From NCBI GenBank assembly GCA_027623675.1, contig JAQBVF010000004.1, positions 64,001 to 128,000 of the forward strand: 64,000 nt of DNA, in the 5' to 3' direction. Origin of the DNA: Chloroflexota bacterium. GTDB taxonomy: Bacteria; Chloroflexota; Dehalococcoidia; Lucifugimonadales; UBA3495. Made by a program: the position numbers and the translations under genes. Numbering within the stretch: the first letter of the stretch is position 1; every line of letters starts with the position of its first letter. Shown here piece by piece: positions 1 through 3,346 of the stretch. The notes beneath the pieces were generated by a model. The model did not search any database, was not told the DNA's origin, and saw nothing but the letters and a program-made list of their open reading frames with translations.

Positions 1-1
1 G

Positions 2-175
2 GTCAATATGGTGGTCTTCCTGACGAACATAGATAATTGGGCCAAGTTCAACGAAGTGTTCCGCGAGTTCGTGCCCAACCCGCCCTGCCGAGCCGTGATT
101 GGCGCCACCGGACTGGCCCAAAAGGCCATCGCCATCGAGATAGTCGACTGTTTCGCCTACCGGGTGGCGGACTAA
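2..175 (+). CDS. RidA/YjgF family protein, 3' part (5' end outside the window)
   Basis: Frame 2 translates VNMVVFLTNIDNWAKFNEVFREFVPNPPCRAVIGATGLAQKAIAIEIVDCFAYRVAD*, matching the RidA C-terminal pattern (V.L.d..df..fN.v...f...pP.R......L......EI). Not in the ORF track. Confidence 0.75.
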   Translation, partial: VNMVVFLTNIDNWAKFNEVFREFVPNPPCRAVIGATGLAQKAIAIEIVDCFAYRVAD

Positions 176-262
176 GTATTACCTGGTTTAACCTAAAACC
201 GCTGCGCCTGCTGGGCGGCGGACCAGGCGCTTTCGAGAATCGAAACTGGATTGGAGGCAGAC

Positions 263-700
263 ATGGCTAACCTGACATTGGCCTATAAAGTGCGCGGCTA
301 CAGCACCGGCAACCTGGGCCGGGCCATCTGCAACGCCCGGACCCATCATTTTGTCGCTGACGATGGCGGCGGCGATGAAGTCGGCGCCGGCGAGTTCTTC
401 TTCTCGGGCATCTCGGCCTGCGCGGTGAACATGGTGGAGCGCATCGCCGATCGAGACAAGATCGCCTTGGACTGGATGGACGTCAGCGTGGAGTCCTACC
501 GCGACTCGGATGCCGACCACGGCGACCTGTCGCTCTACGACGCCATCCGGATCAAGTTCGAGATGTGGGGCGTGGACGACGAGGACGCCCAAAATCTGGT
601 GGAGACCTGGAAAAAGCGTTGACCGCTTTACGGTTCGGTCGCCGTGGCGACTGCTGACACCACCGTGGAACTGGTCCACCATAGTGAAAAATATCGGTAG
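263..700 (+). CDS. OsmC/Ohr-like protein, probable selenoprotein (Sec at codon 120, TGA 620-622)
   Basis: GGAGG RBS at 253-257, ATG at 263. OsmC first-Cys motif EFFFSGISAC (C53). The in-frame TGA reads WKKR-U-PLYGSV, the position of the family's second Cys (C-P). The frame stays open to TAG 698-700, and a hairpin follows the TGA. Confidence 0.85.
636..653 (+). promoter_or_regulatory. Bacterial SECIS-like hairpin for the OsmC-like gene
   Basis: CGGTCGC-[CGTG]-GCGACTG, a 7-bp stem with one G-U pair. The loop has G at position 2 followed by U and starts 20 nt after the UGA. Confidence 0.65.
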
Positions 701-783
701 CTCATCCGGCCGGCGGTTGGCCGCCGGCAGCCAATAGCTAATTGCCAACCAAACGGCTGATGCCTGTCAGTCAGAGAGGATAT

Positions 784-1719
784 ATGCGAATCTGCTCTTT
801 CCTGCCCAGCTCCACCGAGATGGTGTACGACCTAGGTCTCCAGGACCAACTGTACGGCGTGACCCATGAGTGCGACTACCCCCCCGAGGCGCGGAACAAA
901 CCGCATGTGGTCCATAGCGTCTTCGAAGGCCAGGAGCCGACCAGCGGCGAGATCAGCAAGGTCATCTCCGAGCGTTTGGCCCAGGGCTTGGGCATCTATG
1001 AGATAGACACCAGATTGCTGCAGGAAGCCGAACCGGACCTGCTAATAACTCAAGCCATCTGCGAGGTTTGAGCAATCTCGTCTCGGCAGGTGGCCGAGGT
1101 TAGCATCGGACTGGCAAAGCAACCGGAGATCTTATCGTTGGACCCGCTTCATATCGGCGACGTCGTTGAAGACCTCAACCGCCTTGGACGCGCCACGGGC
1201 ACCGAGGCCAAGGCGGCGGAAATCACCGCCGGACTCACCGCCCGGATCGAAGCGGTGACCCTGCGGGCCAAGGACGCCGACAAGCATCCCAGCGTGCTCC
1301 ACGTGGAATGGGCGGAGCCGGTGATGTGTGGTGGCCATTGGGTGCCCGAGATGACCGAGTTGGCCGGCGGGACCAACAGTTTCGGCGACAAAGACACCGG
1401 GACGCTGAAGCTGGATTGGGACGAGGTATTGGCCAGCCAGCCTGAGGTCATCATCATGATGCCCTGCGGCTTCGACGTTAAGCGCGGCCTGGAAGATGTG
1501 CCGCTGATGGCCGCGAAAGAGGGTTGGGCGTCGCTGCCGGCAGTGAGGAACAACCGTGTCTACGTGGTTGACGCCGGGGCCTACACCAGCCGCTCCGGCC
1601 CAAGGCTGGTAACCGGCTTGGAGATCATGGCTGAGATGATTCACCCCGAACTGTTCTCGGGCATGATTCCGGAGGGGGCGGCGCTGCGTCTCTTCGGTGA
1701 CCTGGCCAAGACGAGCTAG
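784..1719 (+). CDS. BtuF/TroA-like (cobalamin-binding family) protein, probable selenoprotein (CxxU, TGA 1069-1071, codon 96)
   Basis: ORF-track pieces 742-1071 and 1090-1719 are in one frame, separated by a single TGA. Readthrough gives QAICEV-U-AISSRQV, matching this subfamily's Q.lCdVCA motif. N-terminus RICSFLPSSTE..GVTHECDYP; C-terminal SRSGPRL. AGAGGA RBS before ATG 784. No signal peptide. Confidence 0.88.
1082..1098 (+). promoter_or_regulatory. Bacterial SECIS-like hairpin for the BtuF-like gene
   Basis: CTCGGC-[AGGTG]-GCCGAG, a perfect 6-bp stem. The loop starts 16 nt after the UGA, and CAGGU resembles the E. coli fdhF SECIS apical region. Confidence 0.75.
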
Positions 1720-1756
1720 TTCATCGGCGGTCCCTGGCCGACGGCCGCAAGAATCG

Positions 1757-2428
1757 TTAATTAAGGCGCGGCCCTTGAAACGGGTTCTGCTTGGTGACGC
1801 GCTCCCGCAGTGCCTCGTTGCCCTGCCGTAGCAGGGGTATCAGGTCCGACAGGCGGGTGGCTGCCGTCTCGGTCACCAACAGGCTCTGACGCAGGTGTGT
1901 CTCCAGTTCCAGGTTGGCGGCGATGGCGTAGGACAATTCGATGGGGTCTTCCGGGATGGCGACCCTTGATGTGTACCCGCCGGTGAGCGCGGTCAGGTTA
2001 CGGACCAGTGCCACGTACTCGTCGTTGACCTGGGGCACGAGATCGGCACATCCCTCGCCTGCCAACTCCACCAGATACCGCACCCGACCAACGATATGCG
2101 GCACACGCTGGACAATCTCCTCGATCTCGAAACGCCTCTGGCCCTTGGTCAGGATGTTCATGCGCCCCTGGTCCAATAGCTCGGAACTGAGTATCCGGGT
2201 AGACGTGCCGATGCGTTCCGGCTCGGCCGGCGAGCCGACCTCCAGACCTTCCTTGATCAACACGACTCCGAAAGGCGCATCATCTCTGAGGCACTCCCCA
2301 ATCATGTTCTGGTAGCGCTCTTCAAAGATGTGGAGCGGCAGGTCCTGGCCCGGAAACAGCACCAGGTTCAATGGGAATAGTGGGAGGTCGGTCAATCCGT
2401 CTCGGGACTCTGGCTCACGTTGTTCCAT
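1757..2428 (-). CDS. Lon protease N-terminal (substrate-binding) domain protein
   Basis: LPLFPLNLVLFPGQDLPLHIFEERY..MI motif. No AAA or protease domain. Confidence 0.88.
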   Translation of the reverse strand: MEQREPESRDGLTDLPLFPLNLVLFPGQDLPLHIFEERYQNMIGECLRDDAPFGVVLIKEGLEVGSPAEPERIGTSTRILSSELLDQGRMNILTKGQRRFEIEEIVQRVPHIVGRVRYLVELAGEGCADLVPQVNDEYVALVRNLTALTGGYTSRVAIPEDPIELSYAIAANLELETHLRQSLLVTETAATRLSDLIPLLRQGNEALRERVTKQNPFQGPRLN

Positions 2429-2471
2429 AACTCTTCGAGTATATTACCTGCGTTCGCGCCAGAACAAGATT

Positions 2472-2819
2472 CTAGCGTCGGTTCTTGGCTCCACGGACCC
2501 TGAAACCGGTGGGACCTTTCTGATGGCGGGCCCACCGCAGAAAATTGGCGACATCGGCGTCGGCCCGCAGCGCATCGATGGAATTCAACTCTTTGGCCAA
2601 TGTGGACTCGGAGAACATGGCGTGGATTTGCCGGTGACACGTGGGGCAGAGCCTGGCTTGAGGGCCGAACCTGCCGCCCCGCGACCGGGGAACCAGGTGA
2701 TGAGTGGTGAACCGCGGCGATTCCCGGCGGCATAACTCGCATACCTGACGATTATGCGCTGGCCGCGTTTGCTCCGTGACCTCGGTCTGTACCGAATCGG
2801 CGGAGTTTCGCCGCGCCAT
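2472..2819 (-). CDS. Small HNH endonuclease-like protein
   Basis: CELC..HHLVPRSRGG..LCPTCHRQIH zinc/HNH motifs. Confidence 0.82.
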   Translation of the reverse strand: MARRNSADSVQTEVTEQTRPAHNRQVCELCRRESPRFTTHHLVPRSRGGRFGPQARLCPTCHRQIHAMFSESTLAKELNSIDALRADADVANFLRWARHQKGPTGFRVRGAKNRR

Positions 2820-2822
2820 GTA

Positions 2823-3305
2823 TCAGGATTTGTCCGGCACTTCCAGGAAGCGCCATCCCGGAAGGTCAACCTGCCAGTCCTCGTCCTCCCACAACATGGG
2901 AAGGATCAGGCCGTTCATGGCCCGCCCGTGTTCAACCTCGGTGGTGTCGCTCTCCATCCCGAAGGGAAGAAAGGCGAAGGCGTGGATATCGTCCAGATAG
3001 CTGGTGGGCGAGATCCCCAGGTCCGTCAGGTCCTCCAGCGGCCAGAGACTTAAGACAGTCTTCCGAAAGTCGTCCAGCATGGCGGGCCGCAGCGGATGGT
3101 CGTCGTTGTAACCGGCGCGGTAGGCGTCTTGCATATTGATGTGGTTGCGCGTCGCCCACACGCCCATCCGCATGCCGCGAGTCTCCTTGGAGAGCATGGA
3201 CCAGGCCAGGTCCATGTCGCCGTCTCTGACAGCCTCGGCGAAGACCCCGGCCCGGCTGCCGCAGCTATCGGGAAATGGGCTTCGTTTTTCTCCTGGTATG
3301 CGCAT
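2823..3305 (-). CDS. Hypothetical protein
   Basis: About 160-aa ORF tightly packed and co-oriented between ggt and the HNH gene, with host-like codon usage. Confidence 0.6.
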   Translation of the reverse strand: MRIPGEKRSPFPDSCGSRAGVFAEAVRDGDMDLAWSMLSKETRGMRMGVWATRNHINMQDAYRAGYNDDHPLRPAMLDDFRKTVLSLWPLEDLTDLGISPTSYLDDIHAFAFLPFGMESDTTEVEHGRAMNGLILPMLWEDEDWQVDLPGWRFLEVPDKS

Positions 3306-3346
3306 CAATGGTCCTTTGACTTGTTATCGGCAAAAGTGATTGGGGC

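Follow-up and report, generated by a model that had tools for sequence, protein, structure and literature searches.

We analyzed a window of 64,000 nucleotides (nt) from the genome of a Chloroflexota bacterium of the class Dehalococcoidia (GenBank assembly GCA_027623675.1, contig JAQBVF010000004.1, positions 64,001 to 128,000 of the forward strand; C10:64001-128000 in our numbering). The assembly comprises 3.07 Mb in 48 contigs and is 91% complete. The names given to near-identical database proteins and to related contigs assign the organism to the SAR202 cluster/Dehalococcoidia. Reading along the plus strand, the window opens with the 3' end of a gene of the RidA/YjgF family, which is followed by a gene for a protein related to OsmC and Ohr and then by a gene for a protein with the fold of BtuF and other class III binding proteins (Table 1). 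The second and third genes each contain a single in-frame TGA that very probably specifies selenocysteine (Sec, U in protein sequences), and each TGA is followed by a hairpin of the selenocysteine insertion sequence (SECIS) type.

The three genes are separated by gaps of 87 nt (176..262, between the RidA-family and OsmC-like genes) and 83 nt (701..783, between the OsmC-like and BtuF-like genes). Purine runs resembling ribosome-binding sites precede both selenoprotein start codons (GGAGG before the ATG at 263, GAGAGGA before the ATG at 784), and a consensus scan of the plus strand gave zero terminator-like sites in positions 1..2600. These results reproduce what a first-pass annotation had read from the bare sequence, namely a co-oriented string with these gaps and no terminator between the genes, and co-transcription of the RidA, OsmC-like and BtuF-like genes is moderately probable. 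Calling open reading frames (ORFs) without read-through breaks up both selenoprotein genes, the OsmC-like gene appearing as 251..622 and the BtuF-like gene as two pieces, 742..1071 and 1090..1719. Public databases likewise hold hundreds of truncated products from close relatives, with lengths of 119 amino acids (aa) and 193–214 aa, so that automatic callers do split or truncate these genes as had been predicted.

Table 1. Coordinates of genes and sequence elements at the start of the window, with the evidence for each
Feature	Position	Strand	Evidence
RidA/YjgF-family gene, 3' end (last 57 codons; TAA 173-175)	2..175	+	Pfam PF01042 Ribonuc_L-PSP, 29.8 bits for this 3' fragment
OsmC/Ohr-like selenoprotein gene, 145 aa, TAG 698-700, Sec120 in K-K-R-U-P-L-Y	263..700	+	Pfam OsmC
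In-frame TGA read as Sec (OsmC-like gene)	620..622	+	Codon conservation and Cys homologues
SECIS-type hairpin, OsmC-like gene	636..653	+	Fold and comparative pairing
BtuF-fold (class III binding-protein) selenoprotein gene, signal-less, 311 aa, TAG 1717-1719, Sec96 in C93-E-V-U96	784..1719	+	Pfam Peripla_BP_2
In-frame TGA read as Sec (BtuF-like gene)	1069..1071	+	Codon conservation and Cys homologues
SECIS-type hairpin, BtuF-like gene	1081..1099	+	Fold and comparative pairing
Lon N-terminal (substrate-binding) domain encoded as a stand-alone gene, convergent with the BtuF-like gene	1757..2428	-	Pfam LON_substr_bdg, 108.4 bits
HNH gene (HlpB-like), followed by a 161-codon ORF	2472..3308	-	NCBIfam HlpB, 94.4 bits, under the cut-off of 130

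Conservation of the two TGA codons was followed in 61 related genomes (20 of the same genus, 17 of other genera of the family and 24 of other families), in the best 80 of 418 stretches from a genome collection (species representatives of 68–93% identity, overlapping the 61 genomes), and in the best 80 of at least 590 metagenomic stretches. Among the 61 genomes, matches to the BtuF-like protein of 51–100% identity all carry the TGA and occur in 38 genomes (20/20 of the genus, 16/17 of the other genera and 2/24 of the other families); no stop is present in paralogues, whose identity is at most 45%. The OsmC-like protein gave 37 match rows, 36 of them with one TGA, the exception being a 52-residue fragment in a single genome (G031). 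In the genome-collection survey codon 96 of the BtuF-like gene is TGA in all 80 loci and codon 120 of the OsmC-like gene in all 68 loci that have it, and TAA or TAG never occurs at either site. Protein alignments with relatives of 51–93% identity run straight across the TGA, covering residues 1-310 of the BtuF-like and 1-145 of the OsmC-like protein. Cysteine occupies the Sec site in all eight full-length homologues of the BtuF-like protein (56–67% identity) and in 63 further Cys forms from the metagenomes, and in all ten full-length homologues of the OsmC-like protein (60–76% identity). The earlier placement of both TGAs at Cys-equivalent positions is upheld by these homologues, and the comparison of relatives finds the TGA retained throughout and Cys forms for both proteins.

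The genome encodes the machinery needed for Sec insertion. Matches to SelB (347.7 bits), SelA (554.8 bits) and SelD (380.3 bits) all exceed curated cut-offs, and a tRNA-Sec with anticodon tca was called by ARAGORN, so that all of selA, selB, selC and selD, on which the first-pass proposal had depended, are present. The selD gene itself (TIGR00476, 380 bits; G000:C3:53424-54344 (-), locus L018) has one in-frame TGA, and SelD is therefore probably a selenoprotein in this organism.

A SECIS element lies at a short, fixed distance after its UGA. The hairpin in the OsmC-like gene has the arms GGUCGC/GCGACU with an outer C-G pair and a CGUG loop, and its six-pair stem begins 14 nt past the UGA. In the BtuF-like gene the arms are CUCGGC/GCCGAG with an outer U-G pair, the loop is AGGUG, and the six-pair stem begins 10 nt past the UGA. 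The folding energies of the single sequences are not unusual against shuffled controls (z-scores of -1.15 and +0.46) and weigh against reading these hairpins as functional; taken singly the sequences do no better than chance, and we therefore relied on comparative tests. Third-codon positions within the stems are conserved at 0.99–1.00 (OsmC-like) and 0.96–1.00 (BtuF-like) among related loci, compared with about 0.4–0.8 in the flanks, while in the loop of the BtuF-like hairpin the third position is conserved at only 0.57. Pairing follows the identity of the codon. The BtuF-like stem (nt 14-19 with 30-25 from the UGA) forms all six pairs in 86 of 96 Sec forms (nine others have five pairs and one has four) and in none of 63 Cys forms, most of which have three pairs or fewer. 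The OsmC-like stem (nt 18-23 with 33-28 from the UGA) forms all six in 87/87 Sec forms, 14 of which come from Chloroflexota of other families (31–47% identity), and in 0/7 Cys forms. Two of the distant OsmC-like Sec forms (L211 and L212) show a double change from C-G to U-A within the stem. The SECIS-like hairpin that the first-pass annotation had drawn after each TGA is thus borne out by synonymous constraint and by pairing in Sec but not in Cys forms.

Because the codons stand at Cys-equivalent sites, the hairpins keep a fixed register and SelA, SelB, SelD and tRNA-Sec are encoded in the genome, SelB and Sec-tRNA most likely decode both UGAs. The competing explanation is that the TGAs are ordinary stops and that the genes are split, truncated or pseudogenes, yielding a 119-aa OsmC fragment and BtuF fragments of 95 and 209 aa. 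Automatic annotation does produce 119-aa and 193–214-aa products from such genes, and GTG 1090 could restart the 209-aa ORF. However, a stop would then have been kept as TGA, and only TGA, at the exact Cys-equivalent codon in 80/80 and 68/68 loci, with protein similarity persisting past it, with a hairpin restricted to Sec forms, and in a genome whose Sec machinery is complete. We therefore reject the split-gene and pseudogene reading, which is extremely improbable, in favor of decoding as Sec. Additional copies of each gene were seen in single genomes. One member of the genus has a second OsmC-like Sec copy of 74% identity (G010:C33:2938-3360), and a second BtuF-like copy in one member of the family (G036:C1:2378664-2379644) lies in two pieces with one TGA and one TAG, possibly as a decayed duplicate.

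The OsmC-like protein belongs to the OsmC superfamily (Pfam PF02566, 41.3 bits against a gathering cut-off of 27.5). We did not assign it to the curated Sec-containing model NF041052 (OsmC_like_Se), whose cut-off is 95 bits; its score of 26.2 bits there is no higher than its scores with Ohr models. It shares the fold family of the two-Cys organic hydroperoxide reductases, represented by the Ohr structure 4noz; C53 (in S-A-C) and U120 (in the C-P motif) align with the first and second catalytic Cys, and the Glu in the P-E-Q segment of Ohr has a Glu as its counterpart. The match is of 25 bits only, and the two proteins differ in that the OsmC-like protein has Sec at the second, not the first, Cys position and an extra Cys, C23. 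The columns of C53 and U120 are both invariant in an alignment of 11 sequences, and C23 is invariant among the close homologues in it. The second Cys of Ohr is the resolving Cys. The protein would act as a thiol/selenol redox enzyme in which Cys53 serves as the first catalytic Cys and Sec120 replaces the second, and the location of Sec at the second rather than the first Cys is an oddity that bears on the mechanism of the Ohr/OsmC proteins.

When 300 genomes from other Chloroflexota families were sampled, 25 had the [U/C]-P-L-Y version of the OsmC-like protein, 18 of the 25 with TGA, and among 20 distant loci that we retrieved the site is U in 14 and C in six. The gene looks like a member of a separate [U/C]-P-L-Y subfamily spread across several Chloroflexota families. 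An OsmC-like selenoprotein family was described in the 2005 Sargasso Sea study, which gives it as COG1765 with three sequences (PMC1088965). That family, now represented by NF041052, likewise falls within PF02566, the OsmC superfamily, and has a single Sec that is part of a predicted redox motif; its motif is UxxT, in contrast to the U-P-L-Y found here. The genes around the 20 distant loci are heterogeneous, with no common partner. The gene adjoins a Rieske/LigXa-like oxygenase gene in three of them (L203, L205 and L220), and in one locus of another Chloroflexota family (L213) a RidA-family gene abuts the OsmC-like Sec gene in the reverse order.

The BtuF-like protein matches Pfam Peripla_BP_2 (75.7 bits), with its Sec in a C-E-V-U context, and belongs to a family of at least 7457 proteins at E-values of 0.001 or less. 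No specific model for it was found in NCBIfam. A structural model predicted with AlphaFold2 from a 22-row alignment has a mean confidence (pLDDT) of 91.1 and a pTM of 0.90. Foldseek matches it to class III proteins that bind haem, iron chelates or B12, including BtuF of Vibrio cholerae and Escherichia coli (5ysc, 1n4a, 1n2z). The two-lobe class III fold is common to the BtuF-like protein and these BtuF proteins (E-values of 1e-13 to 1e-16, target TM-score about 0.8), and the sequences can be aligned over the N-terminal strand-loop and over D-Y-P. The protein differs from them in lacking a signal peptide, in an identity of only 17–20%, in a cleft rich in Cys and Sec, and in a score below the level of an equivalog. 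For a homologue (P0016), the ESM Atlas gave only generic clusters labeled Peripla_BP_2 or 'cobalamin-binding protein'.

The BtuF proteins of the BtuCD-F systems work with a permease and an ATPase; here, in contrast, no btuC or btuD genes lie beside the BtuF-like gene, its neighbours being the OsmC-like gene and the Lon N-domain gene. An export signal is absent according to both the alignment and the model. All 22 aligned homologues start with M-R-[IV] or carry just an extension that is short and unrelated, and in the model the first strand starts at residue 3. The protein itself begins M-R-I-C-S at this first beta-strand, and its longest possible upstream extension (from TTG 742) would add 14 polar residues. 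Because there is no leader peptide, the protein is predicted to act in the cytoplasm.

Four Cys or Sec positions stand out in the 22-row alignment. C93, C96 (the Sec site) and C228 are invariant, and C30, in the segment E-C-D-Y-P, is present in 21/22 sequences; C4 and C182 are found in the close clade only. In the secondary structure of the model C30, C93, U96 and C228 each follow a beta-strand, and the conserved positions would thus sit at the ligand side of the BtuF fold. In the alignment with Vibrio BtuF, E-C-D-Y-P falls on the segment S-D-Y-P, which we take to carry the tyrosine that stacks on the corrin ring.

The genomic context of more distant relatives suggests what this protein may bind. 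We examined 10 loci encoding CxxC forms, chosen for long flanks from metagenome homologues of 38–50% identity. A Cobalamin riboswitch is present in five of them, and in three it lies upstream of a string of genes on the same strand, the BtuF-like gene among them. Two of these strings (L167 and L174) have the same order on one strand: Cobalamin riboswitch, TonB-dependent receptor, CobQ/CobB-like amidotransferase, DUF6580 and BtuF-like gene. In the third (L158) the riboswitch is upstream of the BtuF-like gene and a Diphthami_syn_2 (PP-loop) gene. The order DUF6580, BtuF-like, Diphthami_syn_2 recurs in L201, the BtuF-like gene is followed by a CobQ-like gene in L160, and a string of riboswitch, TonB and DUF6580 is convergent to the BtuF-like gene in L191. 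Directly after a Sec form of 65% identity (L135:879-5188) come another Peripla_BP_2 gene and a gene for a CobQ/CobB-like amidotransferase, with a third, weak match to Peripla_BP_2 behind them. Because its CxxC relatives lie in cobalamin-riboswitch operons for uptake or salvage, the BtuF-like protein most likely holds a corrinoid, to which we give about an even chance of being the ligand. The presence of Sec in the place of a CxxC cysteine speaks for a chemical function of this 'binding protein' fold, with the corrinoid as its probable target. The CxxU pair would act on the bound corrinoid, for example by removing its upper ligand or by changing its redox state.

Several observations weigh against a corrinoid. 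The score against the NCBIfam BtuF model (NF002894) is 37.2 bits, far under the cut-off of 234. The Foldseek E-values range from 1e-13 to 1e-17 over solved class III binding proteins, and haem and iron binders rank as high as BtuF, so that the fold does not single out a corrinoid. The Cobalamin riboswitch stayed below its gathering score at the locus itself (L022), at L135 and L123, and at the loci of two paralogues in the same genome (L223 and L224). Some of these points also favor a different role for the cysteines, in which C30, C93, U96 and C228 would bind a metal ion or an Fe-S cluster between the lobes and the protein would be a metallochaperone, a sensor or a redox protein. A CxxC pair combined with two distant, near-invariant Cys is a common pattern for metal or cluster binding, iron and haem binders precede BtuF in the Foldseek list, and the locus has neither B12 genes nor a riboswitch. 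However, the riboswitch strings around the CxxC relatives, with their TonB receptor, CobQ-like and DUF6580 genes, and the alignment of E-C-D-Y-P with S-D-Y-P of Vibrio BtuF both speak against metal or cluster binding, which we consider unlikely. A corrinoid remains the preferred ligand. The first-pass annotation had suggested a corrinoid or organometallic substrate for the gene string as a whole; the context of the CxxC relatives lends this indirect support for the BtuF-like protein only, and the absence of a riboswitch at the locus counts against it.

Turning to whether the genes work together, 68 of the 80 genome-collection loci have the OsmC-like gene upstream of the BtuF-like gene at a distance of no more than 2.5 kb, in at least three architectures. 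The conserved linkage among relatives on which the first-pass proposal had rested is therefore found. In 49 loci the two genes are on the same strand with a gap of 20–283 nt, and a RidA homologue is directly upstream of the OsmC-like gene in 49/80. In another 19 loci the OsmC-like gene is 0.8–2.5 kb away, mostly with a gene of about 670 codons in between (in L074 a member of a Pfam Na+/H+ exchanger family), and in one of the 19 it is on the opposite strand. In this spaced architecture the block of RidA and QueF genes is usually gone and the OsmC-like gene is retained (18 loci with insertion and upstream replacement). Both genes occur in 32 of 41 genomes that have either one; among the 61 genomes, the BtuF-like Sec gene occurs without the other in six and the OsmC-like gene in three.

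The first-pass annotation had proposed that RidA, the OsmC-like selenoprotein and the BtuF-like CxxU protein form one selenium-dependent module. The OsmC-like protein might re-reduce or oxidise the CxxU pair, or the two might work one after the other on a single corrinoid or organometallic compound, with RidA quenching a by-product. The arrangement on one strand, the short gaps (down to 20 nt between the OsmC-like and BtuF-like genes in relatives), the lack of terminator calls, the persistence of the OsmC-like gene upstream through insertion and replacement, and the co-occurrence of the two genes are all consistent with a module, as is the RidA-family gene abutting the distant OsmC-like gene in L213. 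Two metagenomic loci look like swaps of a partner of the thiol-peroxidase type: in L123 a Cys/Cys pair of OsmC-like and BtuF-like genes, convergently arranged, lies beside an AhpC gene, and in L129 a Sec-form BtuF-like gene lies beside a two-domain CMD/AhpD-like gene. However, each is a single locus.

Other features of the linkage weigh against a module. The 80 loci are all close kin and therefore not independent, and flanking genes with no evident part in the scheme are kept about as often: the Lon N-domain gene is convergent to the BtuF-like gene in 68/80 loci and QueF is kept in 48/80, compared with 68 for the OsmC-like gene and 49 for RidA, so that the linkage may be plain block synteny. 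No neighbour of the BtuF-like gene is more persistent than the Lon N-domain gene, which is found down to 43–47% identity, deeper than the linkage with the OsmC-like gene, and beside more distant Sec and Cys forms (L126, L128, L132, L136, L140, L145 and L177, the last two being Cys forms). No OsmC-like gene was found within the flank in 12 of the 80 loci, eight of them with the full 6 kb upstream. In 13 other genera that have both genes, they are adjacent in three, within 1–2.7 kb in five, far apart in four (G024, G036, G040 and G049, 52–757 kb) and on different contigs in one. Outside the clade, the 20 OsmC-like loci from other Chloroflexota families have no neighbour matching our BtuF-like, RidA or Lon N-domain queries within 6 kb, and an OsmC neighbour occurs in 0/62 of the more distant CxxC BtuF-like metagenome loci, many of which are on short contigs. 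Chance also has to be considered. The BSepDB paper gives 46 and 49 selenoprotein genes for two Dehalococcoidia metagenome-assembled genomes (MAGs), one being the record behind L080, and at about 3000 genes we estimate that roughly 0.7 adjacent selenoprotein pairs would be expected by chance; with so many selenoprotein genes in relatives, adjacency of some pair is not rare.

Weighing these points, we regard an obligate module of the two selenoproteins as possible but doubtful. Of the first-pass proposal, the adjacency stands, being conserved in SAR202 relatives, and the joint function is left in question by flanking genes that are equally kept and by families that occur apart elsewhere. More improbable still is the fullest version of a shared pathway, in which the BtuF-fold protein would be a cytoplasmic corrinoid-processing enzyme whose Sec96/Cys acts on the upper ligand of cobalt (dealkylation, decyanation or reduction) and would have the OsmC-like protein as its redox partner, in a two-selenoprotein pathway for B12 conditioning. 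If true, it would be a functional bacterial counterpart of CblC/BtuM chemistry on a 'binding protein' fold. We read the two genes as neighbours whose redox themes are related, and not as a proven module. The best explanation of the whole, which we think probable, is a pair of genuine selenoprotein genes within a gene string that is conserved in a lineage of SAR202-type Dehalococcoidia.

Both superfamilies have already been catalogued among selenoproteins, separately, as the first-pass annotation had stated. Tables in two reviews (PMC9312934, 2022; PMC13188914, 2026) list an OsmC-like family and a predicted selenoprotein family named 'Cobalamin-binding protein BtuF' (listed under cd01144, with the motif CxxU and one Sec). 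The latter resembles the protein described here in having a BtuF-type domain with a single Sec placed second in CxxU, a likeness drawn from the table description. The entry differs in coming without a function, a cytoplasmic location or a gene neighbourhood. As its source both name Peng et al. 2016 (PMC5029168). We did not find a BtuF entry in the main text or in five supplements of that paper, where 'Cobalamin' matched only CobW, nor did we find the source terms for 'BtuF CxxU' in the deep-Sep paper.

Known selenoprotein clusters likewise contain adjacent Sec-encoding genes, two on the same strand. Those described in section 9 of PMC13188914 are grdA-grdB, prdB-prdC, frhA-frhD-hdrA, Prx-SelW-like, Prx-like-AhpD-like, and the SAO and Tso operons; an OsmC-like/BtuF-like pair is not among the operons of that section. 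A full-text literature search found no paper on an OsmC/BtuF pair, nor on the SAR202 selenoproteome beyond the BSepDB listing. The finding is not a new kind of system. It adds modestly to what is known, with one more pair of selenoprotein genes that are neighbours and a [U/C]-P-L-Y subfamily that falls outside the curated Sec model. Both genes are misannotated as truncated or hypothetical in many public records of SAR202/Dehalococcoidia MAGs, and correct read-through is therefore important if these bacteria, which are abundant in the deep ocean, are to be annotated properly. The BtuF-like CxxC/CxxU family, large and predicted to be cytoplasmic, is a sensible target for biochemistry.

The remaining genes around the pair can be described more briefly. 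The RidA-family gene starts upstream of the window, the full gene spanning approximately L022:7627-8175 (contig C10). The full ORF, read from the upstream contig, matches PF01042 with 62.8 bits, above the gathering score, and about 80 residues at its N-terminus have no family assignment. A P-P-C-R-A-V segment near the C-terminus contains an Arg that may correspond to the active-site Arg of RidA for imine hydrolysis. Further upstream, queuosine genes (QueE-, QueC-, QueD- and QueF-like; L022:4670-7781 (-)) are divergent to the string of RidA, OsmC-like and BtuF-like genes. Epoxyqueuosine reductase, QueG, is a B12-dependent enzyme.

The genome has two further BtuF-like proteins, CxxC paralogues of 37% and 41% identity on contigs C36 and C42. 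At their loci (L223:5778-7584 and L224:5649-9543) one of the genes is followed by a Flavin_Reduct gene (PF01613) and the other, which also lies near QueA (L224:3410-4552 (-)), by DUF3179 and HbpS-like genes. Among the metagenomic Sec forms of 62–63% identity, the BtuF-like gene is next to an S-adenosylmethionine (SAM) synthetase gene alone in L127:192-2237, and a SAM synthetase gene accompanies the CMD/AhpD-like gene in L129:325-4010. Approximately 1.1–1.6 kb downstream of one metagenomic CxxC BtuF-like gene are domains of a group II intron (RF02001 and RF01998; L198:8063-8438 (-)).

On the other side of the pair, beyond the Lon N-domain gene and the HNH gene, lie a 161-codon ORF without a family match and then a gamma-glutamyltransferase gene. 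The HNH gene and the 161-codon ORF recur together in about 20 of the 80 related loci.

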